This document shows, one piece after another, positions 8,773-64,000 of a stretch of 64,000 nucleotides of DNA. The DNA lies in assembly GCA_016192845.1 (NCBI GenBank), contig JACPTI010000065.1:538-64537 (forward strand), in the 5' to 3' direction. Source of the stretch: Acidobacteriota bacterium (GTDB lineage: Bacteria; Acidobacteriota; Vicinamibacteria; Vicinamibacterales; UBA2999). The notes below the pieces were generated by a model. It was not told the origin of the DNA, did no database searches, and saw only the letters and a list, made by a program, of their open reading frames with translations. The stretch's first letter is position 1, and each line of letters opens with the position of its first letter. A program made the translations under genes and the position numbers.

Positions 8773-11700
8773 TCAGACCTCAAGGCATCGAGGAGCGGCG
8801 CGCGCGTCGCAGCCCGGGTTGCCGCGAGTGACGATAGCAGACCCGTCACGAAGACCGCAAAGACCAGCAGCGCGCCGCCGCTCGTGAGCGGCAGCCGCCC
8901 GCCGCGCTCCGCCACGGCCGGCGCAATCGCGAGCGCCGCGCACAGCGCGCCGGTCGCCAGCCCTGCGCCGAGCAGCAGCGCGTTCTCGGCCGCCGCCATG
9001 AGCACGAAATGCCGCTGCCGGTAGCCGACGGCGCCGAGCAGCGCCAGCTCGCGCCGGCGCTCGAGCGCGTTGCGCAGGAACACCGTCGCCAGCCCGATCG
9101 TCCCGAGCAGCAGGCCGAGTCCGCCGAGCGTGCGGAACGTGGACAGATAGGTGTTTTCGACGCGGTGGAACCGTGCGAGCCGCTCGGCCGTACCTGTTGC
9201 GTCGGCCCCGAAGTCGGCGAGCGCGCTCTCGATCACTCCGGCGACGTCGCCGGCGCGCTCGGGGACGGTCTCGAGCAACAGGAACCGATACCCCTCCTCC
9301 TCCGGGAACAGCTCGAGGAACCGATCCTCGGCCATCAGCAGCTCGCTCTGGAAGATGCTGTCGCGCAGCGCGGCCACCAGCCGCAGTCGGATCTGCCGGT
9401 CGCCCCGGGTGATCACGATGTCGTCGCCGAGCTGCCGGTGGAGGATGTAGGTCATCGAGTTCGCGTCGGCAATCACCGGGACCGCACCGTCCCGCTCCCG
9501 GCGGTGCAGCAGCCGCCACGGGTTGGCGCGTTCCTCATCGGTTGACGCAAGGGAGCTCTGAAACGCGAAGCGAGCCTCGCGGAGGAAGCCGTCGCCCGGC
9601 GCCAGGATGCGCGGGTTCCGCGGCTCGTACAAATTGAGACAGCTCGCGTCGTCGCCCGGCAGCAGCCGGAACGGCTCGATCCGCGTCGACTCGAGATCGA
9701 CCAGATTGAGCGCGTCGCGCCCCTCCACCGAGTTCGGATCGTGGACGATCGGCAGGAGCGTTTCGACCAGGAGCGTGTAGCCGCCAAGCCCCGACTGCCG
9801 GTCGCCGGGGTCGATGCCCGTGTCACGCCGGAACGCATCAACCGCGATGAGGATGAACGTGGCGGATGCGATCACGGCAATCGACAGCACGCTGCGCCCG
9901 GGCCGGTAGGTGGTATTCCGCAGGCCCAGATGCGACACCGGCTGCCAGCCGCGGCCGCCAATCGCCTGTCGCGCCGGACGCCGGAACGCCCCGGCAAAGA
10001 GACCGAGCGCCGCCACGAGCAGCAGCGCACCGGCGCCAAAGAAGGCCCCGCCCGGTGCCACGAGGCCCGCGGCGGAGGCGGCCAGGAGGAGGACGGCGAC
10101 AAGCGCCAGGCCTAAGACGTTCCACGCCCAACGCGTCAACTCCCAACGCCCAAGACGCCAACGCCCAAACCGCGAAGGCCCGACAGTTGGGAGTTGGGAG
10201 TTGAGGGGTTGGGAGTTGTCGATCTGCCCCGCCAGCAGCGTACGCTCCGAGATCTTCCCGAGCCCGCGCAGCGTCCACCAGACGCAGACGAACGCGGCAG
10301 CAATGCCGCCGGACGCCCCCACGGCGAGCGACGCCGGCGAGACGTGCAGCGCGAGCGCGTTCGTCCCCACCGCATCGACCCACCACGTGCGCAGGCCGAT
10401 CATCAGCAGCGCCGCGTATCCCACGGCACCGATTGCGCCAACCGCGCTGCCCGTCACCGCCAGCACCAGTCCTTCCGACAGGAACAGACGCCGCAGGTCC
10501 GCGGACCCGAAGCCGACGGCGCGGAGCAGGCCGACCTCGCGCCCGCGCTGCTCGACCCCGAGCTTGAAGAAGAGCGCCGCCAGCAGCAGCGCCGAGACGA
10601 CGATGAAGAAGCTGAAGTAGAGGAAGTAGGCGCCGAAATCGGTCGCGCCGCGCGACGCCGCGAGCCCTTCGCCGCGGACGTTGCGCACCGCCAGCCCGGT
10701 CTCGAGCGGATCCAGGCCCGACCGCAGGCGCTGCTCGTAGGCCTGCCGCGCCTCCTCCGGCAACTCGCCGGCGGCCGGCGCGATCCGGACGGACGTGAGC
10801 GCGCCGTACCGCGAGCGCCAGAGCCGCTGCCCCGTCTCGAGCGGAATGAACGCCTTCGGCGTCGTCCGGTATTGCTCCCAGTACTCCTCGTCGACGCGAC
10901 GGATGCGGCGCAGGTCGATCGGAAACGGCGGGTTCCAGTCGACGAGCGTCGGCGAATCGGTAATCCCCGGGTACTCGGGCGCAAGATCGGCGTCGCCAGC
11001 TTCAACGGGCACCACGGCGGCGACGCGGAAGTGGGCCGACCGCGTCACGAGACGGCCGGGTTCTTCCCACAGGTGGTACTCCATCGACACGGTGTCGCCG
11101 GGACGAGCGGCAAGCTCGCGCGCCGCCCACTCGTTCAGCACGATAGGCGGCTCTGGGCCGCGCGGCGGCGGCGCCGGCGCCACGGTCGCGAGATCGATCG
11201 CCGTCACGAGCGAGTACGGAATCTCCCGCTCGCCCACACGCAGCGTGTTGGCGAGGTACGTGAGGACTGGAATGGTCTTCATGCCGCGTGCTTCGGCCGC
11301 GGCCGTGGCGGCGCCAGCCTGCGCGTCAGTAAGCAGCCCCGCGTCGGCGCCGAGAGCGAGCAGGCCGCGGTCCTCGAGGACGCGCAGCGTCAGACCCAGA
11401 TCGTCGAGCGTCGCGCGATCGCGGACGAGCCGCTCGAGCGCCACGGCACCCCCGGGGCGGGCGTCGGGCGACTGCGAGAACAGAATCGTGTTGACGCGCC
11501 CCTCGATCTCCAGCTCCTGCTGCAGCTCGTCGAGCGGCACGAACACCGCCCGCACGTCGCCCTGCTGGGCGTCGAGCGAGAACTCACCGAGCTCGGAGGC
11601 GGGAACCGATGCGCGGACGGCGAGCCGGAGCGTGCGCGTCAGGTCGTCTTTGCGGCCATGGAGCGACTCGAGCGGAATCTCCGACGGGCGCTGTACGCGC

Positions 11701-17660: not shown

Positions 17661-17879
17661 CACGGTGCGAGGTGCGAGGGTGCCACGGTACGATGGTGCG
17701 TCCGCCGGTGCGACGATGCGAGGGTGCGGGCGGCTCTCGGGTCCGGGTTCGACGGTGCTTGCCTGCGCCCTGCTGGCGTGCTCGGCCGATGCAGATAATC
17801 CCGCACCGTCGAACGTGCCTGTGAACCCTCGCACCGTCGCACCGTCGGACGCACCATCGCACCCTCGCACCGTCGCACC
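17661..17879. repeat. heptamer-word inverted repeat, family C (GGTGCGA / TCGCACC); the arms flank a signal-peptide coding segment
   Basis: Left arm 17661-17729 starts 1 nt after the gltA stop and contains the ATG at 17716. Right arm 17826-17879 is translated as NPRTVAPSDAPSHPRTVAP. About 95 nt lie between the arms. Confidence 0.8.
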
Positions 17880-18723
17880 TGTGTCTCTGCAGGGCGCCTC
17901 CAAGTTCGACAGCAGCCGCGCGTACGAAGACCTGCGGCGGCAGGTCGGCTTCGGGCCCCGCCCCGCGGGCTCGGCGGCGCTCGCCCAGTGCCGGCAGTAC
18001 ATCCTCGACCAGCTCAAGGCGGCCGGGATCGCCGCCCGGGAACAGGCGTTCGACGCCGACACGCCGGTCGGCCGGATACGGATGGTCAACATCATCGGCA
18101 CGATCCCCGGCAGGCGGCAGGACCGGATTGCGCTCGCCACGCACTACGACACCAAGCTCTTCCGTGAGTCCCGCTTTGTCGGCGCGAGCGACGGCGCCTC
18201 CTCGACCGCCGGCGTGCTTGAGCTGGGGCGGGTGCTCAAGGCGCGGCAGAACGACTACACGATCGAACTGCTCTTTTTCGACGGCGAGGAAGCGTTCGTC
18301 GACTGGTACAAGAACAACGACAACACGTACGGCAGCCGGCACTACGTGCAGGCGGCGCAGAAGGCGGAAACGCTGGGCGGGCTCAAGGCGGTCGTCCTGC
18401 TCGACATGATTGGAGATCGCAACCTGACGATCCGCCGCGATACCAACTCGACGCGCTGGCTGACCGACGTCGTCTGGGCGTCGGCGGCGAAGCTCGGATA
18501 CCGGTCGTCCTTTCTGACCGAAGAAACGACAATCGACGACGACCACATGCCGTTTCTCCGCGCCGGGATCCCGGCGGTCGACATCATCGACCTCGAGTAC
18601 GCGGCGTGGCACACGCCGCAGGACACGCTCGACGCGGTCAGCGCGCGCAGCCTGCAGATTGTGGGTGATGTGGTCCTCGACGCGCTGCCGCAGATCGAGA
18701 AGCGGCTGGCGTCAAGTCGGTGA
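17716..18723 (+). CDS. M28-family peptidase / glutaminyl-peptide cyclotransferase-like lipoprotein
   Basis: ORF 17614..18723 trimmed to ATG 17716 (MRGCGRLSGPGSTVLACALLAC lipobox-like). M28 core: HYDTK...ASDGASSTAGVLEL...LLFFDGEE...LLDMIG...DDHMPF. GTG 17881 is an alternative start. Confidence 0.75.
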   Translation: MRGCGRLSGPGSTVLACALLACSADADNPAPSNVPVNPRTVAPSDAPSHPRTVAPVSLQGASKFDSSRAYEDLRRQVGFGPRPAGSAALAQCRQYILDQLKAAGIAAREQAFDADTPVGRIRMVNIIGTIPGRRQDRIALATHYDTKLFRESRFVGASDGASSTAGVLELGRVLKARQNDYTIELLFFDGEEAFVDWYKNNDNTYGSRHYVQAAQKAETLGGLKAVVLLDMIGDRNLTIRRDTNSTRWLTDVVWASAAKLGYRSSFLTEETTIDDDHMPFLRAGIPAVDIIDLEYAAWHTPQDTLDAVSARSLQIVGDVVLDALPQIEKRLASSR

Positions 18724-39291: not shown

Positions 39292-39597
39292 CTACTCCTC
39301 CTCCTCGTCCTTCGGCAGCCCTTCGAATTCCTCGAGAAAGATCAGCCCCCGATGCGATGGGATTTCGAAGCGCTTGCCGCAGACCTTGCACGTGACGTCG
39401 TTGTCGACGCGGATGAGGTGGTCTTTCACCTTGGCGAACAGCGCTCGATCGCGCTCATCGGCGCCCGACGGGACGTGCGCCTTCTTCGTCCGCCGCATCC
39501 ACTGGATCGAGTAGTCGCTGGTGCGCCGGCACCGGGGGCACTGCAGCCGTGCGGGACGCTGCTCCGGCTTTTCCGTAAAGAACCGCCGCTCATCCAC
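39292..39597 (-). CDS. zinc-ribbon protein (two CxxC pairs), function unknown
   Basis: ORF 39292..39741 trimmed to GTG 39597, because the upstream part is repeat-encoded. LQCPRCRR...TCKVCGKRF, with an acidic tail DEEEE. Confidence 0.55.
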   Translation of the reverse strand: MDERRFFTEKPEQRPARLQCPRCRRTSDYSIQWMRRTKKAHVPSGADERDRALFAKVKDHLIRVDNDVTCKVCGKRFEIPSHRGLIFLEEFEGLPKDEEEE

Positions 39598-39610
39598 GTG
39601 TGGATTATGA

Positions 39611-39747
39611 CAGTGCTTGGTCCCTTGCGCTCGGTGCCTGGTCCGTGCTTGGTGCTCGGTGCTTCGAGCGTACCTGGTCCGTGGTGCGGCAAAGGCCCGC
39701 CCGGACCACGCACCAACGGCCGACCAGGCACCAGGCATCAAGCACTG
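39611..39747. repeat. heptamer-word inverted repeat (GGTGCTT/GGTCCGT words vs AAGCACC/ACGGACC-type words) upstream of lon
   Basis: Outer perfect 9-bp pair CAGTGCTTG (39611-39619) / CAAGCACTG (39739-39747). The arms are built from reverse-complementary word sets; the inner pairing is imperfect. Confidence 0.7.
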
Positions 39748-39767
39748 CTAAACTGGCCGTGAGCCTT

Positions 39768-44893: not shown

Positions 44894-44913
44894 CTGTCTC
44901 TCCGCCGCAAGGG

Positions 44914-44978
44914 CACCCCATCGCGCAGGGCCGGGGTCCCCACGGCGCCCGCGCCGTGGGGTGGTAGACGCGATGGGG
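44914..44978. repeat. nested REP-like family A hairpins in the leader of the PmtA-like gene
   Basis: Outer CACCCCATCGCG (44914-44925) pairs with CGCGATGGGG (44969-44978). Inner hairpin CCCCACGGCGC/GCGCCGTGGGG at 44938-44961. Confidence 0.65.
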
Positions 44979-45048
44979 CCCCGCTGAAGTGCTGGGAAAT
45001 CGAAGGTTGCGGTACCCGGGTCCCGGACCGTGCCTCGACCGCCCCGGC

Positions 45049-47688: not shown

Positions 47689-47722
47689 ATCCCTAGTTTA
47701 AGGCGTCACCGGTCATCAGTGT

Positions 47723-47754
47723 TTGCGAGCGATGACAAGTGTGGCTATACTTGT
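47723..47754 (+). promoter_or_regulatory. candidate promoter (TTGCGA-17 nt-TATACT) with overlapping inverted repeat ACAAGT/ACTTGT
   Basis: -35 at 47723-47728 and -10 at 47746-47751. Inverted repeat at 47735-47740 / 47749-47754, as expected for an autoregulated antitoxin operator. Confidence 0.4.
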
Positions 47755-47770
47755 AGCTAGAATCATCACG

Positions 47771-47998
47771 ATGCAGTTTGCCACCGTCGCAGAGGTTAGG
47801 AACGGGTTGTCGCGCTATCTGGCCCGCGCACGGAAGAGACGCGAGCCCATCGTCGTGACGCACCACGGAAAACCGTACGCGCTCATTCAGCCGCTTTCCG
47901 AGAGCGACCTCGAGATGCTGGACTGGAAAGGGCTGGCGGAAAGGCGACTGCGCGATGCCTGGGAGGGAGAAGACGATGCCCTCTACGACGACCTATAA
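47771..47998 (+). CDS. type II antitoxin, Phd/YefM family
   Basis: MQFATVAEVRNGLSRYLARARKRREPIVVTHHGKPYALIQPL. Overlaps the toxin start by 23 nt. Confidence 0.75.
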   Translation: MQFATVAEVRNGLSRYLARARKRREPIVVTHHGKPYALIQPLSESDLEMLDWKGLAERRLRDAWEGEDDALYDDL

Positions 47999-48365
47999 GC
48001 GCGGGACGGTGATCGTCGTCGAGGTGGCATTCTCGGACCTTTCGGGTTCGAAGCGGCGGCCGGCGCTCGTTGTCAGCGACGAGGGCTTCCACAGAACGCT
48101 TCCCGATCTCATCGTGTGCCCAATCAGTAGCCAGCCACGCTACTTCCAGAAACCTGGACCGGGCGATTGCCCCGTCGGAGGCTGGCGCACGGCCGGGCTC
48201 CGACGTCCGAGCACCGTTCGCATCTCGAAGCTCCTGGCCATCGACAAGGACATCGTCCGGCGAACGCTGGGCGTGCTGCCAGCGCAGGATCTCACGGTAG
48301 TAGAGACAAGCCTTCAGAAGGCACTCGGGCTCGCGCCCGAGCCACGCCGCGGTCGCGGGCGATGA
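47976..48365 (+). CDS. mazF: type II toxin, PemK/MazF-family endoribonuclease
   Basis: YKRGTVIVVEVAFSDLSGSKRRPALVVS...LIVCPISS...STVRISKLLAIDKDIV. ATG 47976 is preceded by GGGAGGGAGA. Confidence 0.75.
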   Translation: MPSTTTYKRGTVIVVEVAFSDLSGSKRRPALVVSDEGFHRTLPDLIVCPISSQPRYFQKPGPGDCPVGGWRTAGLRRPSTVRISKLLAIDKDIVRRTLGVLPAQDLTVVETSLQKALGLAPEPRRGRGR

Positions 48366-48651
48366 CGGCCACCGGCCGGCTCTGGTAGACGTCAGCCGGC
48401 CTGACGATTCCGGCGGCTCTCGTTCATTTATGTCGCCCGCGTCCGACGTCGAGAATCAACGTGATCGTCAACTGGCTCCAGATCCTCACGAAGGACCGAC
48501 AGTTTCGTCACGGCGATGAATGTCAGGGCTGGGCGCCAGGGCCATCTCGCGTGGGTCTTGGCCCCCGACAACGCCGTCGAAATTACCGTGATTGTCGCCA
48601 ACGTCCTCGGTGATCAGTTCGTGGTACTTTGCCAATATCAGGCGTATTCCC

Positions 48652-48942
48652 ATGCCGACGATTACCGTGAGACTGGACCGCACGCGCGCTGCTCGTCTTG
48701 CGCGATGGGCACGGCGTGGGAAAGTTCCCAAGTCCGAGGTGATCCGTGCCGTCATAGATCGTGCGGGTCCGATCGATACCGGAGACGACCTGATCAAAAG
48801 GGTGCAGGGCCGCCGCCGCGACCCGTCATGGCGCCGCGCGCGGCCAAGTTCATCGCGCACCCTGTTTCCGGCGTCGATGGCCTCTTCCGTCTCGAAGGCC
48901 CCGTTCACCACGGCTAAAGCCGGACGCTACATGGCATTTTGA
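48652..48942 (+). CDS. ribbon-helix-helix (CopG-family) protein; C-terminal part doubtful
   Basis: MPTITVRLDRTRAARLARWARRGKVPKSEVIRAVIDRA is a typical RHH N-terminus. The remaining ~50 aa are not family-like and overlap the nuoI 3' end. No partner toxin recognised. Confidence 0.45.
   Translation: MPTITVRLDRTRAARLARWARRGKVPKSEVIRAVIDRAGPIDTGDDLIKRVQGRRRDPSWRRARPSSSRTLFPASMASSVSKAPFTTAKAGRYMAF
48909..48932. repeat. family G REP-like palindrome (partial) at the nuoI stop
   Basis: CACGGCTAAAGCCGGAC-GCTACAT. The tail supplies the last codon and the stop of nuoI. Confidence 0.6.
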
Positions 48943-49379
48943 AGTGCGGCGGGCGGCTTCGCGCCGGGCGGCGGCACGAGCAGGTCTTCTTTGTCCCAGA
49001 TGAAGTCGTCCTTGCTGTAGACCGCGAGCTCGTAGTCTTTGCCCATGAAGATCGCCGACACGGGGCAGGCTTCCTCGCAGTAGCCGCAGAAGATGCAGCG
49101 CGTCTTGTGAATCTGATAGACCTTCGCGTAGCGCGGCCCGGCGAGCATGGTGCCGTCGTTCTCCGCCGCTTCGAGGTAGATCGCGTCCGCCGGGCACGCC
49201 ACCGAGCAGAGCCCGCACGCGACGCACTTCTCCAGCCCGTTCTCGTCGCGCATCAGCACCTGCTTGCCGCGGTACTTCGGGAACATCGGCACCTTCTCGT
49301 CCGGGTAGTTCACGGCCACCTTCTTCCTGAACATGTGCCGGAACGTGGTCGCGAGCCCGACGAGAAACGGTCGAATCAT
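48927..49379 (-). CDS. nuoI: NADH-quinone oxidoreductase subunit I (2x[4Fe-4S] ferredoxin-type), isolated from other nuo genes
   Basis: CVACGLCSVACP and CIFCGYCEEACP clusters. The N-terminus FRHMFRKKVAVNYPDEK is typical of NuoI. Confidence 0.85.
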   Translation of the reverse strand: MIRPFLVGLATTFRHMFRKKVAVNYPDEKVPMFPKYRGKQVLMRDENGLEKCVACGLCSVACPADAIYLEAAENDGTMLAGPRYAKVYQIHKTRCIFCGYCEEACPVSAIFMGKDYELAVYSKDDFIWDKEDLLVPPPGAKPPAALQNAM

Positions 49380-49392
49380 AGGGCGATCATAC

Positions 49393-49540
49393 TAGCCGGT
49401 AGGTGGTAGCCGGTAGCCGGTAGGTGGTAGCCGGTAGGTGGTAGCCGGCAGCCGAACCAGGAACCGCTACCGGCTACCGGCTACCACCTACCGGCTACCG
49501 GCTACCACCTACCGGCTACCGGCTACCGGCTAGCGGCTAC
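49393..49540. repeat. long heptamer-word inverted repeat, family E (GGTAGCC/GGTAGGT vs GGCTACC/ACCTACC), filling the nuoI/lytS divergent gap
   Basis: Left arm 49393-49453 (9 consecutive 7-nt units), spacer GAACCAGGAACCG, right arm 49467-49540 (10 complementary 7-nt units plus a 4-nt partial unit), ending 1 nt before ATG 49542. Confidence 0.85.
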
Positions 49541-49541
49541 A

Positions 49542-50873
49542 ATGGCTGACGTGCTCGAGGAGCCAACAGCTCTCCCGGCCGACCAGTTCCTGCTGACCAC
49601 CCTCATCGTCAAGCTGGCCGTCATGGCCGTGCTGGCGACGATGCTCGCGCGGTTTCGGCAGTTCCGGCACATCCTGATCTTCGAGCGCCGCGGCTGGGGC
49701 GACCGCCTCGTGTTCGCGCTCGCGATCGGCGTGCCGCTGATGGCGGGGGTCGGCGCGCGGCTGCTGCTCAACTACAACGCTGCGGACCTCACGCTCGAAG
49801 GCGCGTTCCTGGCCGGCCTGATTGCGGGTCCGTACGCCGGCGCCACCGTCGGGCTGCTGGTCGCGCTGCCGGCGCTGGCGGCCGGGGAGTTCATCGCGCT
49901 GCCGTTCGCGATTGGATGCGGCTTCGCCGGCGGCGGCCTGCGCGAGGTGTGCCCGAAAGAGGCGATCTGGCAGTTCACGCCGTTCGTCTTCGTCGATCTC
50001 CGCCGGCACGTGTGGCACGCCGTCCGCCGGCTCGAGCCGAACTGGCAGCTCGTGCTGCTGGCGGCGCCGGTGGCGCTCGAGCTGCTCCGCCAGACGCTCG
50101 GCCTTCGCTTCGGCGCGCACCGGCTGTTCTACCTCGACCCGGTATCGCCCTGGATGACCGCGCTCGTCGTGCTGGCGACCGTGCTGGCCGTGGCCACGCC
50201 CATCAAGATCTGGAACAGCGCGCGGATCGAGCACCGGCTGCAGGAGCAGGAGAAGCTCCTGATGGCGGCGAAGATCGAAGCGCTCAAGAGCCAGATCAAT
50301 CCCCACTTCCTCTTCAACACGCTGGCGTCCATCTCGTCGCTCATCCGCTCGCAGCCCGAGACCGCGCGTACGCTCATCATCAGGCTCTCGGGGCTGCTGC
50401 GGCGCCTGATCCGCAGCCACCAGCACTTCGTCACGCTGCGCGAGGAGCTCGACGCGATCGACGAGTATCTCGATATCGAAGCGGTCCGGTTCGGGTCGAA
50501 GCTGCAGGTGCGCAAGGAGATCAGCCCCGATACGATGGACGTCATCGTCCCGAGCATGATCCTGCAGCCGCTCGTCGAAAATTCGATCAAGCACGGGCTG
50601 ACCCGCAAGGTGGGCGACGGATCGATCGTCATCCGCAGCTGGCGCGAGCACCGGCGGGCGGTCATCGAGGTCGAAGACGACGGCGTCGGGTTCCGGGTGG
50701 ACCGCCTCGACGAGCGCATGACCGACGGCATCGGCCTGGCCAACGTGCGCGAGCGGCTGCACGTCATCTACGGCGCCGCCTGCCGGCTCACGCTCGACAG
50801 CGAGCCGGGCGTCGGCACCCGCGCCCGCATCGAGATTCCGGAGCTCCTCGCGGCGGAACAGATCACGGCATGA
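49542..50873 (+). CDS. LytS/YehU-type sensor histidine kinase (5TM-LYT + His_kinase + HATPase)
   Basis: QINPHFLFNTLASISSLI H-box region, N-terminal multi-TM sensor, C-terminal GIGLANVRERL ATPase motif. Confidence 0.85.
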   Translation: MADVLEEPTALPADQFLLTTLIVKLAVMAVLATMLARFRQFRHILIFERRGWGDRLVFALAIGVPLMAGVGARLLLNYNAADLTLEGAFLAGLIAGPYAGATVGLLVALPALAAGEFIALPFAIGCGFAGGGLREVCPKEAIWQFTPFVFVDLRRHVWHAVRRLEPNWQLVLLAAPVALELLRQTLGLRFGAHRLFYLDPVSPWMTALVVLATVLAVATPIKIWNSARIEHRLQEQEKLLMAAKIEALKSQINPHFLFNTLASISSLIRSQPETARTLIIRLSGLLRRLIRSHQHFVTLREELDAIDEYLDIEAVRFGSKLQVRKEISPDTMDVIVPSMILQPLVENSIKHGLTRKVGDGSIVIRSWREHRRAVIEVEDDGVGFRVDRLDERMTDGIGLANVRERLHVIYGAACRLTLDSEPGVGTRARIEIPELLAAEQITA

Positions 50874-51652
50874 GCGACCCGCTGCGCGTGATGGTCGTCG
50901 ACGACGAGCAGCTCGCACGTGACGAGCTGTGCTACCAGCTCGAGCGGCTCGGCGACGTGCAGGTGGTGGCGCAGGCGGGCAACGGCTTCGAGGCGCTGAC
51001 GGCTGCCGAACGCTACGATCCGGATCTCGTGTTCCTCGACATCCAGATGCCGGGGTTGAGCGGCTTCGAGGTGGCGCGGCGGCTGCTCGAGCGCGAACGC
51101 GAGACGCCGGCGCTCGTGTTCGTCACCGCCTTCGACCAGTACGCCATCGAGGCGTTCGAGGTGAACGCGGTCGACTACCTGCTCAAGCCGGTGGACGTCG
51201 GACGCCTGGAACAGGCGCTGGCGCGCGCCCGGCGGCGGTTGAGCTTGGAGCGGCCGGCGCCCCTGAACGACCAGCTGGAACGCATCGTCAAGATGATGGC
51301 GAACCGCCAGGTCCGGCGCGACCAGGTCGCCATCAAGGTCGGGGAACGGTTTCTGCTGGTACGGGCCGACGAGATCATCTATGCCTCCCTGGCCGACGAG
51401 TCGATTAACATAGTGACAGGGCAGGTGTCGGGGACGTCCAATTACAGGACACTGGACGAACTGCAGGCGCGCCTCGACCCGGAGGTGTTCTGGCGCGTCC
51501 ACCGCTCGCACCTGGTCAACATCAACAAGATCAAGGAGATAGTCCCTTGGTTCAGCAGGAACTACATCCTTCGGATGAAGGACGCGAAGGGAACGGAGAT
51601 ACCGGTCAGCCGGGCGCAGACCAAACGGCTCCGGGAGTACCTGAAGCTCTGA
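50870..51652 (+). CDS. LytTR-family response regulator
   Basis: VMVVDDEQLARDEL...DLVFLDIQMPGLSG receiver domain plus C-terminal LytTR domain (FWRVHRSHLVNINKI). ATGA overlap with the kinase stop. Confidence 0.9.
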   Translation: MSDPLRVMVVDDEQLARDELCYQLERLGDVQVVAQAGNGFEALTAAERYDPDLVFLDIQMPGLSGFEVARRLLERERETPALVFVTAFDQYAIEAFEVNAVDYLLKPVDVGRLEQALARARRRLSLERPAPLNDQLERIVKMMANRQVRRDQVAIKVGERFLLVRADEIIYASLADESINIVTGQVSGTSNYRTLDELQARLDPEVFWRVHRSHLVNINKIKEIVPWFSRNYILRMKDAKGTEIPVSRAQTKRLREYLKL

Positions 51653-51717
51653 CGCTTGCCGAGCCCCCCGGGGAACCGGTGCTCGTGGCGGCCGCCGAGA
51701 CGGGGTTCACCCCCGAC

Positions 51718-52281
51718 ATGCGGCTCACGATCGACGACCGCCGGGCGGCCATCATCCGCCGCCTGACCCTCCTCAAGGACGAGGCGGTCGCCTGGGTCAA
51801 GACGCTCGCCTCGGCCGCGGTCTACGCCACGCTCATCGTGACGTTCGGATTCCAGGTGGCGCGCGTCGAAGGCCAGAGCATGGCGCCGACGCTGGCCGAT
51901 CAGGACCGCCTCATCGTCAACAAGCTGGCCTACCGGATGGGCGAACCGCGGCGCGGCGATATCGTCATGCTTTATTACCCGCTGAACCCGGACAAGTCGT
52001 TCGTCAAGCGGGTCATCGCCGAGGAAGGCGACCAGGTGCGCATCGTCGACGGCCGCGTGTTCGTCAACGACGTGCCGATGCAGGACGACTTCGTGCCGCC
52101 CGAGTACCGCAGCCACGACGACTTCGGCCCGTCGGTGATTCCCGAGGGGTACTACTTCGTCATGGGGGATCACCGGAACAACAGCTCCGACAGCCGGCAC
52201 TGGGGGTTCGTGCCGAAGAAGTACATCATTGGGAAGGTCCAGCTGCGCTGGTGGCCGATCCCGAACGCGCATTTCTTCTGA
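51718..52281 (+). CDS. lepB: signal peptidase I
   Basis: VEGQSMAPTL (Ser), KRVIAEEGD (Lys), VMGDHRNNSSDSRHWGFVP boxes. ATG 51718; GTG 51679 is an alternative start. Confidence 0.85.
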   Translation: MRLTIDDRRAAIIRRLTLLKDEAVAWVKTLASAAVYATLIVTFGFQVARVEGQSMAPTLADQDRLIVNKLAYRMGEPRRGDIVMLYYPLNPDKSFVKRVIAEEGDQVRIVDGRVFVNDVPMQDDFVPPEYRSHDDFGPSVIPEGYYFVMGDHRNNSSDSRHWGFVPKKYIIGKVQLRWWPIPNAHFF

Positions 52282-53174
52282 CAGATCGATACACCCAGGT
52301 CGTCCGGGTCCTCTACCGCGTCCTCGTCTTCAACCTCGCGGTCGCCGGCGTCAAGATCGTCCTCGGGTACCTGACGGGGGCGGTCTCGATTCTTTCCGAA
52401 GGATTCCACTCGCTGACCGATTCCGCCTCGAACGTGGTGGCGCTGGTCGGCGTGTCGATCGCGCGGCGCCCGCCCGACGAGGAGCATCCCTACGGCCATC
52501 GCAAGTACGAGACGATGGCCTCGCTCGGCATTCTCGTGTTTCTGGTCGTCGTGCTCGTGCAGGTGCTGGCGGCCGCGTACGACCGCCTCGTTTCTGGCAC
52601 GGTGCCGCGTGTGTTTCCCGAAGGGATCGGCGTCATGGCCGTGACGCTGGTCGTGAACGTGCTGGTCGTCGTCTACGAGATGCGCGCGGCGCGGCAGCTC
52701 AACAGCGAGGTGCTGCAGGCGGACGCGATGCACACTCGCAGCGACGTGCTGACGTCGGCCACCGTGCTCGCCGCCCTGTTCGGCGTCTGGTGGGGCTACG
52801 CGTGGCTCGATCCGCTCGCGGCGCTCGTCGTGGCGGTGTTCATCGGCCGCGCCGGATGGTACATCGCCCATGAGGCGTCGCGCATCCTGAGCGATCAGAC
52901 TGTCATCGCCGAAGACGACGTGCGGGCCGTCGTGCGGTCCGTGCCGGAGGTCCTCGGCTGCCACCGCATCAGGACGCGCGGCTCGGCCGACCATGTCTTC
53001 ATGGACCTGCACGTCTGGCTCGACGGCCGCACGCCGCTCGAGGCGGCGCACAGCACCTCACACGCAGTGAAGGACCGGCTGATGAAGCGGTTCCCGCATC
53101 TCGCCGACGTCGTCATCCATATCGAACCGCCGCCTTCGACAACTCCCAACTCCCAAGACGCCAACTCCCAATAA
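52251..53174 (+). CDS. cation diffusion facilitator (CDF) family transporter
   Basis: SILSEGFHSLTDSASN, HPYGHRKYE, and six TM helices. The C-terminal STTPNSQDANSQ is repeat-encoded. Start uncertain (GTG 52251 overlaps lepB). Confidence 0.8.
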   Translation: MADPERAFLLTDRYTQVVRVLYRVLVFNLAVAGVKIVLGYLTGAVSILSEGFHSLTDSASNVVALVGVSIARRPPDEEHPYGHRKYETMASLGILVFLVVVLVQVLAAAYDRLVSGTVPRVFPEGIGVMAVTLVVNVLVVVYEMRAARQLNSEVLQADAMHTRSDVLTSATVLAALFGVWWGYAWLDPLAALVVAVFIGRAGWYIAHEASRILSDQTVIAEDDVRAVVRSVPEVLGCHRIRTRGSADHVFMDLHVWLDGRTPLEAAHSTSHAVKDRLMKRFPHLADVVIHIEPPPSTTPNSQDANSQ

Positions 53175-53277
53175 CCCTTTCACCTCCCAACTCCCAAGAC
53201 GACACCTCCAAGACGGCGCGCAGCTCAGCCGACGAGTTGGGAGTTTGGGATTTGGGAGTTGCGGAGTTGGGAGTTGG
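53140..53277. repeat. heptamer-word inverted repeat, family B (CAACTCCCAA / TTGGGAGTTG)
   Basis: Left arm 53140-53213 encodes the CDF C-terminus and stop. Right arm 53234-53277. Shares a nearly identical stretch of about 33 nt with 10137-10170. Confidence 0.8.
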
Positions 53278-53477
53278 TCCCCCGCTTGCTCCATGTGCAG
53301 TGCTATGGCACGCCCTGACCTCGTCCACGGTGAATCGATCGGGAGCCTGCTGCAGGGGGTTCTGGCGGATCTACGGATGCTCGTCCGCGAGGAGATCGCG
53401 CTGGCCCGCGTCGAAATTCGCGAGCAGGCGGGCCGCGCACGGGCGGCCGCCGTGAAGGACCCGAACATAGGCGCGCG

Positions 53478-53483
53478 TATAAT
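53478..53483 (+). promoter_or_regulatory. perfect TATAAT 10 nt upstream of GTG 53494 (leaderless-type arrangement)
   Basis: CGCGCG-TATAAT-CGCGCG palindromic context. No convincing -35. Confidence 0.3.
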
Positions 53484-53493
53484 CGCGCGTGTT

Positions 53494-54720
53494 GTGGGCC
53501 GTCGACTCGCCCTCTCGCTGCTCCTCGCGCTGATTGGCTTCGCGGTTCACGCAGAAGACTGGCCCGAGTTCCGCGGCCCCACGGGCCAGGGACACTCGAG
53601 CGAGCGCGGTCTGCCGCTGGAATGGAGCGAGTCGCGGAACCTGATGTGGAAGACACCGGTCCCGGGTCTCGGCTGGTCGTCTCCAGTCGTCGCAGGCGGC
53701 CGTGTCTGGCTCACATCGGCGGTCCGGGAACGCGACAGCGCGTCGCTTCGCGCGCTGGCCTACGATATCGACACCGGACACGAGGCGGTGAACGTCGAGG
53801 TCTTCCGCATCAGAAATGCGGTCCTCCTGAACGCCAAGAACAGTCACGCCTCGCCGACGCCCATCATCGACGGCGACCGTGTGTACCTGCACTTCGGCGC
53901 CGACGGCACGGCGGCGCTCACGACCGGGGGCGAAATCGTCTGGAAGGCGCGTTTCCCCTATGTGTCGCAGCACGGCAGCGGGGGATCTCCCGTGGTGTAC
54001 GACGACCTGTTGATTTTCAACTGCGACGGCTGGGATGCGGCGTTCGTCATCGCGCTGGACACGCGGACCGGGAAGGTTCGCTGGAAAACGCCGCGCCGCT
54101 ACCCCGCGGACCAGGCGTACTCGACCCCGCTTGTCATTCGCGTCGGCGATCGGGACCAGGTCATCAGCGTCGGCGCGTATCGCGCGGCCGCGTACGATCC
54201 GCGGTCGGGCAGAGAGATCTGGCGGGTCGGCTACCGCGACGGCTTCTCCAACGTCCCGCGTCCGGTCTTTGGTCACGGGCTTGTCTACATCGCCACCGGG
54301 TTCCAGCAACCATCCCTGATTGCGGTGCGCGCCGACGGCACAGGCGACGTCACCAGGACGCACGTGGCCTGGACGCAGCAGCGGGCAGTGCCGCTGACGC
54401 CCTCACCGCTGCTTGTGGACGATGTGCTCTACACTGTCAGCGACATCGGCATCGCAGCCGCTCTGGACGCGAAGACGGGAGCGGCGCACTGGCTCCAGCG
54501 GCTCGGCGGAAATTACTCCGCGTCGCCGGTGTTCGCCGACGGGCGCATCTATTTTCTAAGCGAAGAAGGTATGACGACCGTGATCGTGCCGGGCCCAGAG
54601 TTTCGCGTCCTGGCAAGAAACCAGCTCGACGGGACGACCCTCGCTTCGATGGCGGTTTCGGGCGGGTCGATCTTCATTCGCTCCGATCGCCACCTGTACC
54701 GGATCGGCACGCCGAAGTAA
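53494..54720 (+). CDS. secreted PQQ-like (BamB-like) beta-propeller repeat protein
   Basis: ORF 53245..54720 trimmed to GTG 53494, giving the signal MGRRLALSLLLALIGFAVHA before EDWPEFRGP. Colinear paralog of 6008..7324. Confidence 0.8.
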   Translation: MGRRLALSLLLALIGFAVHAEDWPEFRGPTGQGHSSERGLPLEWSESRNLMWKTPVPGLGWSSPVVAGGRVWLTSAVRERDSASLRALAYDIDTGHEAVNVEVFRIRNAVLLNAKNSHASPTPIIDGDRVYLHFGADGTAALTTGGEIVWKARFPYVSQHGSGGSPVVYDDLLIFNCDGWDAAFVIALDTRTGKVRWKTPRRYPADQAYSTPLVIRVGDRDQVISVGAYRAAAYDPRSGREIWRVGYRDGFSNVPRPVFGHGLVYIATGFQQPSLIAVRADGTGDVTRTHVAWTQQRAVPLTPSPLLVDDVLYTVSDIGIAAALDAKTGAAHWLQRLGGNYSASPVFADGRIYFLSEEGMTTVIVPGPEFRVLARNQLDGTTLASMAVSGGSIFIRSDRHLYRIGTPK

Positions 54721-54766
54721 TCGACGTCTACCGACGTTTCGAACGATCCGAACGCCGATAGACGCC
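54721..54766. repeat. family D word hairpin overlapping the moaC 3' end
   Basis: TCGACGTCTACCGACGTTTCGAACGATCCGAACGCCGATAGACGCC, translated on the minus strand as ...[12 protein letters not shown]-stop. Confidence 0.65.
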
Positions 54767-59974: not shown

Positions 59975-60568
59975 TTACGAGGCGCGGGCGGCCCGCCGCG
60001 GGGCGGCGATGACGGTCGCCTTGACGGCCTTGGCCACCTTGGCGCGTGCGGAGGCGCGGGCCATGTTGCGCGCCTTCACCATGAAGCACCTTTCGAGCGC
60101 GCGGTCGACCTTCTCCTCGACCTCCGCCGACTTCTCGCGCACGACCTCCGACACCTCCGACACGATGAGCGCCCGGGCGCGGTCGAGCATCCGCTTCTCG
60201 CGGAACGACAGGCTCTTCGACTTGCTCAGGAAGGTGAGGCTCTTGAGCACGTCGGCCATGTCGTAGATGGAGCCGGTCCGCATCTTGTCGGAATTGTCCT
60301 TGAAGCGCCCTTTCCAGTTCTGATGGTTGTCGATCTTGCCGTCGCTCAGGAGCGTGAACAGCCGCACGACTTCCTCGTCACTGATGGCCTTGCGCAGACC
60401 GACGCCCTCGACGTTGGACACCGGCACCAGAACCGTCGTGTCGTTCGAGACAATGCGCAGGTGAAAGAAGCCGCAGGTGGTACCCAGAATGGTTTTCTCT
60501 TCGATCCGTTCAACGATACCGAGCCCGTGATTCGGGTAGATGACCTTGTCGCCGACCTGGAATGTCAC
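59975..60568 (-). CDS. carD: CarD/CdnL-family transcriptional regulator with basic Ala/Lys/Arg-rich C-terminal tail
   Basis: ORF trimmed to GTG 60568, preceded by GGGGGA. FQVGDKVIYPNHGLGIVERIEEK...RMLDRARALI. Tail ARNMARASARAKVAKAVKATVIAAPRRAARAS. Confidence 0.8.
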   Translation of the reverse strand: MTFQVGDKVIYPNHGLGIVERIEEKTILGTTCGFFHLRIVSNDTTVLVPVSNVEGVGLRKAISDEEVVRLFTLLSDGKIDNHQNWKGRFKDNSDKMRTGSIYDMADVLKSLTFLSKSKSLSFREKRMLDRARALIVSEVSEVVREKSAEVEEKVDRALERCFMVKARNMARASARAKVAKAVKATVIAAPRRAARAS

Positions 60569-60627
60569 GTTTCCCCCGTTGGAAGGTTGGTGGTAGGACC
60601 GGTCTCGCTCCGGGAACAGCACCCACA

Positions 60628-60657
60628 AGTATAGCGCACGGGGAGGGCCCCGATCAA
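60628..60657 (-). promoter_or_regulatory. candidate promoter TTGATC-18 nt-TATACT for carD
   Basis: On the minus strand, -35 at 60657-60652 and -10 at 60633-60628, about 55 nt upstream of GTG 60568. Confidence 0.35.
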
Positions 60658-60812: not shown

Positions 60813-60901
60813 GGGTCGTATAGGGGGTCAGACCCCCGTACGACCCGTCACCGGGGTCTGACCCCGTCTACACCCGTCACCGGGGCCTGCCCCCTGTCTA
60901 C
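60813..60901. repeat. hairpin plus two tandem ~30-nt direct repeats immediately upstream of ATG 60911
   Basis: GGGTCGTA..GGGGG-TCAGA-CCCCC..TACGACCC (60813-60846). Direct repeats ACCCGTCACCGGGGTCTGACCCCGTCTAC (60843-60871) and ACCCGTCACCGGGGCCTGCCCCCTGTCTAC (60872-60901). Confidence 0.7.
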
Positions 60902-60910
60902 AATCGACGG

Positions 60911-62450: not shown

Positions 62451-62460
62451 GCCTGAATCA

Positions 62461-62598
62461 GCCGGTAGCTCGTAGCCGGTAGCTGGAGCTGGTAGCCGGT
62501 GCCGCTAGCCGGTAGTATCAACTACAAATTACAGACTACCAACTACCAACTGCTACTACCAACTGCTACCACCTACCGGCTACCAGCTACCAGCTAGG
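62461..62598. repeat. heptamer-word inverted repeat, family E variant (GGTAGCC/GGTAGCT vs CTACCAA/CTACCAG)
   Basis: Left arm 62461-62516, AT-rich spacer ATCAACTACAAATTACAGA, right arm 62536-62598, which covers the stop at 62594-62596. Confidence 0.8.

Positions 62599-63357: not shown

Positions 63358-64000
<643 letters not shown>

Follow-up and report, generated by a model that had tools for sequence, protein, structure and literature searches.

An intergenic gap between two divergent genes of a soil acidobacterium of the Vicinamibacterales (Acidobacteriota) is filled by a pair of complementary arrays of 7-nt words, which we analyzed within a 64,000-nt stretch of contig JACPTI010000065.1 (assembly GCA_016192845.1), hereafter referred to as the window. 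The results indicate that this element, at positions 49393-49540, is probably a young and hypervariable inverted pair of heptanucleotide simple-sequence-repeat arrays, constituting near-neutral slippage DNA with a modulatory role at most. The element belongs to a population of hundreds of such arrays across the Vicinamibacterales, and any function it may have would most likely be exerted at the DNA level, as a spacer or a cruciform.

Tandem Repeats Finder (TRF), an inverted-repeat search and a split into heptamers resolved the region into two hairpin-capable, complementary period-7 tandem arrays, bearing out the original prediction of a 148-nt hairpin of tiled heptamers filling the divergent gap. 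The left arm (49393-49454; delimited by TRF, heptamer split and direct-repeat family) comprises 8.9 copies of TAGCCGG/TAGGTGG heptamers, with a degenerate last unit (CAGCCGA); the word list originally given for this arm correctly described a heptamer array, but in its phase the first unit reads ACTAGCC and not GGTAGCC. The right arm (49466-49540; TRF, inverted-repeat pairs and folds), the complement of the left one, comprises 10.7 copies of GCTACCG/GCTACCA/CCTACCG, and its last partial unit, CTAC, overlaps a TACAAT hexamer. The spacer between them (49455-49465, AACCAGGAACC) is readable as two degenerate right-arm words, and the resulting loop, 11-13 nt long, moves with the pairing register. 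In both arms, a period of 21 is superimposed on the period of 7 (93% and 94% matches by TRF in the left and right arm, respectively).

The best arm-to-arm pairing extends over 53 nt with 96% complementarity, and fifteen further registers are available at offsets that are multiples of 7 nt. Predicted RNA folds reach -137.7 kcal/mol on the plus strand (z = -13.2) and -131.5 kcal/mol on the minus strand (z = -11.5), and the DNA fold reaches -77.4 kcal/mol (z = -13.3), energies that none of 200 shuffles attained. The minimum free energy structure accounts for only 1-6% of the ensemble and the hairpin is thus slippery, as had been anticipated from its many registers. With head-to-tail iteration of a 7-nt unit in at least three copies, the element classifies as a heptanucleotide long simple-sequence repeat, of the type also known as short tandemly repeated repetitive (STRR) sequences. 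A scan of the whole window against the Rfam 15 covariance models yielded no match at the gathering score, and a tRNA scan returned no match. A G-quadruplex was discarded for the GGTAGCC/GGTAGGT words, which contain no run of three G and hence lack the potential of G-rich GGGNATC-type words, although TTGGGAG arrays elsewhere in the window could form such structures. A clustered regularly interspaced short palindromic repeat (CRISPR) array was likewise discarded, since the units are 7 nt long and contiguous, not 23-50 nt repeats with unique spacers. A GGAACC motif recurs in three of eight loops of the same word family, and was judged not to be meaningful. The order of variant words is not significantly mirrored between the arms (observed 48 versus 46.3 ± 3.6 by permutation, P = 0.28), as is also the case for most other elements, and a templated inverted duplication, initially read from the ABAABA word pattern, was dropped following this test.

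The genes on either side match their original names, nuoI and lytS, at the family level. The NuoI-like gene (48927-49379, minus strand, ATG at 49377-49379) encodes a 150-aa 2x[4Fe-4S] protein that maps to Pfam Fer4 families and passes the NCBIfam TIGR01971 NuoI subfamily model (144 bits, cutoff 113). On the plus strand, a LytS-type sensor histidine kinase (49551-50873; Pfam His_kinase PF06580 and HATPase_c) is followed by a LytTR-family response regulator (50870-51652; Pfam Response_reg and LytTR) that overlaps the kinase stop codon, and then by signal peptidase I (lepB) and a cation diffusion facilitator (CDF) transporter. The kinase was used to scan species-representative genomes, resulting in 80 loci with kinase identities of 66-95%. 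Nearly all of these records are metagenome-assembled genomes, labeled with few exceptions as Vicinamibacterales, Acidobacteria or Acidobacteriota, and most of them retain the divergent order of the NuoI-like and kinase genes.

Comparison with these orthologs suggests that the kinase probably starts at GTG 49551 and not at ATG 49542. The latter is in frame with the kinase but lies inside the sequence TACAATG, and its ATG is missing in loci L022 (TACAATC) and L003, and L004 has it in another frame; the orthologs keep instead a GTG/ATG/TTG-CTC-GAG start that matches GTG 49551. The claim that a single nucleotide separates the right arm from the lytS start codon hence holds only for ATG 49542, a triplet that sits within the TACAAT hexamer and is not the conserved start. 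This hexamer (49538-49543, plus strand) is located 7 nt upstream of GTG 49551 and is the presumed leaderless promoter of the kinase operon, whereas the presumed leaderless promoter of the NuoI-like gene is TATGAT (49386-49391, minus strand; ATCATA on the plus strand), 6 nt upstream of its ATG. Both -10-like hexamers are conserved. At 5-9 nt upstream of the NuoI-like ATG, TANNNT is present in 68 of 78 orthologous loci (TATGAT in 31 and TATCAT in 20), and in 51 of 81 loci, one of which is the window, TACAAT, TAGAAT or TAAAAT occupies the same interval before the aligned start of the kinase. A scan of positions 48800-50000 detected neither a -35/-10 sigma-70 consensus promoter nor a U-tract terminator, and inspection by eye of the window and of the array-free locus L001 revealed no good -35 hexamer at a distance of 16-18 nt from either -10 box.

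These observations extend beyond the focal gap. In the combined 1.49 Mb of the window and the 80 loci, TANNNT is found 6-8 nt upstream of candidate starts at 23, 14 and 17 per 1000, against a background of approximately 3 per 1000 and 1 per 1000 inside genes, and the signature touches about 22% of genes. This lineage-wide peak is the signature used to call leaderless genes, and agrees with the 9.7-19.4% of leaderless genes reported in Acidobacteria (PMC3160421). Based on these conserved motifs, both divergent genes are likely to be transcribed as leaderless mRNAs. The lack of room for a ribosome-binding site, noted in the original prediction, would therefore be expected, and the array would lie upstream of both transcription starts and outside either mRNA. 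We also noted in the window a gene for a CarD-family RNA-polymerase-binding protein (59975-60628), which may bear on promoters with a weak or absent -35 element; the presence of CarD would fit promoters that lean mainly on the -10 element.

Placement of the array outside both presumed mRNAs makes translation occlusion, processing or termination unlikely at the focal site. The proposal that the element acts on RNA, as a terminator, a processing site or a translation occluder of lytS and nuoI, draws on the very stable RNA hairpin formed by both strands, on the proximity of the right arm to ATG 49542 and on similar arrays located elsewhere directly after stop codons, where they might terminate transcription. 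It is nonetheless very unlikely here, given that the conserved -10-like hexamers stand between the array and each start, so that transcripts should begin downstream of the array, that the closest relative lacks the array altogether, and that hairpin arrays are as frequent in divergent gaps, where terminators are not needed. An intrinsic terminator was specifically rejected because there is no U-tract and the element lies between two 5' ends; in agreement with the original prediction, it is not an ordinary rho-independent terminator, and period 7 dominates across the 1.49 Mb sample.

Analysis of the orthologous gaps revealed that the insert is not conserved. The consensus organization can be described as CAT-N6-8-[ATCATA or ATGATA]-(insert)-[TACAAT, TAGAAT or TAAAAT]-N6-8-GTG, with inserts ranging from 0 to about 190 nt, and in insert-free gaps only some 7-10 bp separate one -10 box from the other. 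The closest relative, L001 (95% identical kinase), carries no array, reading ATCATAA-CCCGGG-TACAAT with just 7 nt at the array position, even though it shares 84-93% nucleotide identity with the window in aligned, mostly coding blocks. The next one, L002 (92%), has one CCAACCA-type array in the gap, about 30 species present gaps of 18-45 nt, and approximately 27 of the 80 loci contain word arrays, mostly hairpin pairs, with words unlike those of the window, such as CAACTCC/TTGGGAG, GGCAGTA/CTGCCTA, GGCTTTG/AAAGCC, AAGGCCT and CAGGTGA. The presence/absence variation among relatives that had been proposed as a check is thus evident, and the absence of the array in L001 indicates that the window array is young, in agreement with its near-perfect units. 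Sister pairs L013/L015, L030/L032, L050/L054 and L056/L065 share arrays that have already diverged in unit number and sequence, and the older arrays (L013/L015, L030/L032) are only loosely complementary. Array-free relatives present CCGGGTACAAT, CCGGCTACAAT or GCGGCTACAAT at the -10 box, which the last units of the window array, CTAGCGG-CTAC-AAT, resemble. This likeness of the outermost right-arm units is only suggestive of local seeding, with a roughly estimated probability of about 0.02 for a chance match. An exact look-up of the NuoI-like protein yielded no record from other strains of the species, and an exact search of metagenome contigs with the 20-nt left flank returned no match.

The same comparison bears on a possible operator function. 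LytTR proteins typically bind 9-bp direct repeats with a spacing of about 12 bp, and the 21-nt periodicity of both arms, next to an operon encoding a LytS-type kinase and a LytTR regulator, could be taken to represent phased sites for autoregulation by the downstream regulator. This idea was rejected on ortholog comparison and we regard it as highly implausible: the block encompassing the kinase and regulator (49534-53134) is 92.6% nucleotide-identical to that of L001, which has no array, other orthologs harbor unrelated words or none, and the focal words occur at many unrelated genes.

Evidence for slippage was obtained from loci of the same word family. A 23-nt run of the focal words (GGTAGCCGGTAGCCGGTAGGTGG) is present at 27 metagenome loci, nearly all of them with 64-70% GC content and next to several different genes. 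Four pairs among these loci are near-identical copies of one site, some of the loci are hairpins and others single arrays, and several arrays begin inside a TAG stop codon or right after a -10-like box. The metagenome contigs L081 and L098 are 99.5% identical over 10.4 kb, and differ in length only within GGTAGC[CT] arrays at three separate sites, by indels of 21, 7 and approximately 9 nt, establishing unit-number polymorphism at other loci of this family. In L083, one unbroken array (positions 15-110) grades from (TAGCCGG)5 through TAGGTGG into GAGTTGG/CAGTTGG, with GGGAGTT/GGCAGTT words, and a path of one or two point mutations hence leads from the GGTAGCC family to that of TTGGGAG. Between the window and L001, every intergenic array differs even though the flanking genes align.

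Short tandem repeats are prone to mis-assembly, and an artefact was therefore contemplated as the source of the array, but it is hardly credible: each arm (62-75 nt) is below typical read length, the array class recurs across dozens of assemblies made independently, among them megabase-scale contigs (L003, L006 and L022), and across independent metagenomes, and where two samples have yielded nearly the same contig, the copies agree apart from indels of whole units.

We performed a census of arrays with at least 3.5 copies in the 1.49 Mb sample. Period 7 predominates, with 199 arrays versus 25, 41 and 57 for periods 6, 8 and 9, respectively. Between 151 and 195 of the period-7 arrays are intergenic and 19-63 coding in DNA that is approximately 84% coding, yielding an intergenic enrichment of at least 12-fold, and 101 of 195 arrays have a complementary array within 250 nt. 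Hairpin pairs are present in 5.7% of tandem gaps, in 6.4% of convergent gaps and in about 7-8% of divergent ones, a share that is about 7% once the focal gap is left out, and this even spread over gap types reveals no preference of the kind expected of a dedicated terminator or promoter element. Of the array boundaries facing a gene 3' end, 39% lie within 10 nt of the stop codon, and 25% of those facing a 5' end have a TANNNT-N5-8-start within 60 nt, compared with 1.9% of random windows, with a median distance of 6 nt from boundary to hexamer. The vocabulary is extensive, with 79 canonical heptamers among 151 arrays, and the words, at 51% GC, have a higher AT content than the sequence around them and are strand-asymmetric. 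A role in providing stop codons in three frames, suggested by the TAG repeated every 7 nt in GGTAGCC, was discarded because stop-containing words are barely enriched (37% versus 27%), a slight excess attributable to their AT-richness. Array density ranges from 0 to 5 per 10 kb across species, and loci such as L003, L012, L017 and L041-L044 are free of arrays over 21 kb. Within a genome, 5.6% of array pairs share the same canonical word, compared with 1.4% between genomes and 0.15% for random heptamers.

Taken together, these results are compatible with a model in which replication slippage would have expanded the array within the one part of the gap that is free of constraint. The probable seed is a CGG(C/G)TAC sequence beside the -10 box, and the complementarity of the arms may go back to a seed that was itself a short palindrome, or to an inverted duplication. 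Such an array would be tolerated if these promoters need little beyond a -10 box, and its effect on DNA, if any, would be to move two otherwise overlapping back-to-back promoters approximately 145 bp apart, with possible cruciform extrusion under the negative supercoiling generated by divergent transcription.

Several observations weigh against this model. The leaderless starts, and with them the untranscribed status of the array, are deduced from motif conservation, and the unit-number polymorphism concerns other loci of the focal word family and not the focal locus itself. Pure local seeding does not predict the elevated word sharing within genomes, nor the recurrence of the GGTAGCC/GGTAGGT run in several genomic contexts among the 27 metagenome loci, and both leave room for dispersal by copying or selection of words. 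Non-significant mirroring of word order (P = 0.28) provides no backing for a templated inverted duplication as the source of the complementary arm. Lastly, the lepB-CDF gap and the gap upstream of lon keep a hairpin in many species despite changed words, as might be expected if hairpins were selected whatever their sequence. The question of how the second arm came about and the word sharing within genomes thus keep alive two alternatives, namely selection for hairpins irrespective of sequence and dispersal by copying.

Under the first alternative, hairpin arrays would be selected structural DNA, acting as sequence-independent cruciform or curved spacers that insulate neighboring transcription units. 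At the focal gap they would uncouple the overlapping divergent promoters and absorb supercoiling, and elsewhere they might bind a nucleoid-associated protein. The lepB-CDF gap illustrates the case for this proposal. In many species it holds hairpins with differing words (AAAATGC, AATTCAG, ACAAGTT, TCAGTTA and others) whose arms are still complementary, and it constitutes a second hot spot, from the stop codon of signal peptidase I to the CDF start (approximately 12750-12980 in L019, L022, L026, L030, L032, L033, L040, L049, L056, L057, L072, L077 and L079), where several hairpins combine an A-rich left arm with a T-rich right arm. The window and L001 have no such gap, as their lepB and CDF genes overlap. 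Upstream of lon, the window carries a GGTGCCT/GGTGCTC ... ACCAGGC hairpin array (39629-39745), between lon and a small minus-strand gene, L001 carries a hairpin array of unrelated words (GGCTTC.../GAAGCC) and L003 carries none. The small gene, within the region 39292-39760, is conserved and diverges from lon, and encodes about 100 aa with CxxC pairs from GTG 39595-39597, 6 nt downstream of a CATAAT hexamer.

Persistence of complementary hairpins with changing words at these gaps and in the approximately 27 of 80 focal gaps, pairing of about half of the intergenic heptamer arrays, AT-rich and strand-asymmetric words, and the short distance separating the -10 boxes in insert-free gaps, whose widening would alter the interplay between promoters, all speak for selected structural DNA. 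Nevertheless, the closest relative and some 30 other species do well without an insert at the focal site, older arrays decay into loose complementarity (L013/L015, L030/L032), there is no preference for a gap type, arrays occupy whatever room is available, reaching as far as stop codons and -10 boxes, as unconstrained expansion would, and one array lies in frame inside a gene. On balance, we consider selected structural DNA unlikely. We assign a lower plausibility to the related possibility that a lineage-specific process seeds palindromic heptamer satellites in about half of the gaps and keeps them palindromic, with the hairpins serving as self-renewing, sequence-independent punctuation. Candidate mechanisms for such a process are slippage combined with arm-to-arm template switching, or a dedicated enzyme. 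These satellite hairpins would insulate or terminate bidirectionally between -10-only and often leaderless units, and their seeding would explain why structure persists at a gap while words turn over.

Dispersal by copying could also take the form of a non-autonomous mobile element, such as a miniature inverted-repeat transposable element (MITE) or a REPIN-like hairpin, inserted by a transposase encoded elsewhere and later reshaped by slippage. The clean presence/absence relative to L001 would be in line with insertion, as would the occurrence of the focal word family at a second site 13 kb away, where a hairpin array (62460-62596; AGCCGGT ... CTACCA/CTACCGG) begins 10 nt beyond the start codon of a D-Ala-D-Ala-ligase-like gene, and in several metagenome contexts, often with several instances per assembly (7 contigs of Ga0156279). 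Word sharing within genomes amounts to 37 times the random expectation, and the words contain GTAG, the tag of repetitive extragenic palindromic (REP) sequences mobilized by REP-associated tyrosine transposases (RAYTs) (PMC3733652). The copies, however, share only the 7-nt word, with no full-length consensus or terminal motif, and the junction with L001 shows no target-site duplication (ATCATAA-CCCGGG-TACAAT versus ATCATAC-[array]-TACAAT). Arm length, loop and word order differ at every site, the 79 canonical words are spread over 151 arrays, many single arrays have no partner arm, and the L083 array grades into another word family within one run. A scan of approximately 40 window proteins detected no transposase and no Y1/RAYT domain, and REPs have 5-13 bp stems with one fixed sequence per family. 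We therefore view mobility as quite improbable. The REP/RAYT idea arising from the GTAG tag was set aside because the elements at 49393, 62460 and the 27 metagenome loci share no conserved unit beyond the heptamer word, and a MITE because of the missing target-site duplication and variable copy lengths.

The window itself contains 15 arrays. The original prediction had the same design recurring with different words in most intergenic gaps; the design does recur with other words, but in about 14 of about 30 gaps of at least 40 nt, which hold a short-period array, and only about nine of these are hairpin pairs. Besides those described above, a GGTAGGC/AGTAGGC ... CTGCCTA hairpin array (63358-63450) ends at the stop codon of a minus-strand gene (63449-63991), and a hairpin pair of 8-nt words (17662-17880; GGTGCGA-N ... 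TCGCACC-N) has 56-nt arms with 89% complementarity. Another hairpin array (10124-10221; ACGCCCA/CAACTCC ... TTGGGAG) lies inside a continuous 1120-codon FtsX-permease open reading frame. It is in frame, with one FtsX domain on each side, as in a duplicated MacB/ADOP-like permease, and would encode a linker of about 33 aa or, alternatively, has fused two genes. Downstream of the CDF transporter gene, the window presents a CAACTCC ... GAGTTGG hairpin array (53140-53277), and L001 has GGGATCC arrays instead. A 1.6-kb segment of the window (53134-54740), carrying a gene for a PQQ/BamB-like beta-propeller (53245-54720), is absent at this point in L001 (13593-13706), and in both genomes its left edge coincides with heptamer arrays, made of CAACTCC words in the window and of GGGATCC words in L001.

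Other differences and repeats were also observed. Adjoining the NuoI-like gene, approximately 1.2-1.7 kb of sequence is specific to the window (47690-48930, versus 9329-9544 in L001) and includes genes for a Phd-family antitoxin (47723-47998) and a PemK/MazF toxin (47955-48365). The window also contains a nested palindrome of 80 nt, rich in GC (44911-44990; CCCCATCGCG...CGCGATGGGG around CCCCACGGCGC...GCGCCGTGGGG), that is missing from L001 and represents a hairpin insertion without tandem words. At 60824-60910, a 29-nt unit is repeated 2.7 times, with a small hairpin per unit (GGGGTCTGACCCC). Its last copy ends in TCTACAAT-CGACGG-ATG, placing a -10-like box and the probable leaderless start of a methyltransferase (60911) within the repeat.

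Extrapolating from 15 arrays in 64 kb, a Vicinamibacterales genome could hold on the order of a thousand hypervariable hairpin-forming heptamer arrays. In an order known mostly from metagenome assemblies, these arrays are a source of strain-level indels, possible strain markers and likely break points in short-read assemblies. They also cause annotation errors, leading here to a probably wrong start codon and the apparent loss of a ribosome-binding site, and elsewhere to open reading frames called through arrays. Furthermore, they reveal how little sequence these promoters require upstream of the -10 box, and provide a natural system to study the origin and persistence of palindromic satellites in compact bacterial genomes. 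At the focal locus, transcription of lytS-lytTR and of the nuoI-like gene is probably leaderless, judging by sequence conservation, and RNA-level regulation of these genes probably does not involve the hairpin, contrary to the terminator, processing or occluder role initially envisaged for it. The lineage-wide phenomenon merits descriptive study, whereas the single focal locus gives no pointer to a new mechanism.

The original prediction did not recognize the element as a described repeat class. Its exclusion of REP sequences, bacterial interspersed mosaic elements (BIMEs), CRISPRs and classical MITEs stands, but intergenic heptanucleotide repeats, including inverted pairs, have been described (PMC4692102, PMC4679880). 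No description was found for Acidobacteria in the literature searched, which leaves out subscription journals. REPs are fixed imperfect palindromes of 20-40 nt, each family having a single consensus and stems of 5-13 bp (PMC3733652, PMC3116915). Like REPs, BIMEs and REPINs, the arrays reported here are intergenic, hairpin-forming, abundant and often located just past genes, and the focal word includes GTAG; unlike them, they present 60-75 nt arms of tandem words, copy steps of 7 nt and no consensus longer than 7 nt.

Heptameric repeats are over-represented in bacterial intergenic DNA, and in Xanthomonas campestris and X. axonopodis intergenic GGGAATC heptamer arrays form 70-75 inverted pairs per genome, able to adopt stem-loops or cruciforms (Rehm et al. 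2015, PMC4692102). The length and sequence of these repeats vary strongly among close species, while their type, single or inverted pair, tends to persist (PMC4692102). The focal element shares with them the intergenic location and the close placement of opposite-strand arrays of one word, capable of forming a stem-loop or cruciform. The Xanthomonas repeats, however, belong to another phylum and use essentially one G-rich word with G-quadruplex potential, in contrast with the 79 canonical heptamers of the Vicinamibacterales arrays, which also abut the -10 boxes of apparently leaderless genes. Another heptamer case is that of the GATAGRA satellites of Chloroflexus (PMC6749651). The TAACTGA direct repeats of marine Beggiatoaceae (MacGregor 2015, PMC4679880) are also intergenic heptamer arrays that often end 1 nt before the annotated start, with variant words interspersed, but they are based on one dominant word in 2-6 copies, with one inverted repeat in the genome, and run in forward orientation upstream of start codons, where a role in translation has been proposed.

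Cyanobacterial heptanucleotide repeats go by the name of STRRs. As far as later papers summarize the original reports (Mazel 1990 and Mrazek 2007, as cited in PMC4692102 and PMC4679880), they resemble the arrays described here in the over-representation of 7-nt units, their intergenic location, the presence of several word families per genome and the proposed involvement of replication slippage, and differ in that few paired complementary arrays are mentioned in Nostoc, whereas about half of the arrays are paired here. The focal element is hence of a known kind, an intergenic heptanucleotide repeat, that is new for its phylum and has an unusually rich vocabulary.

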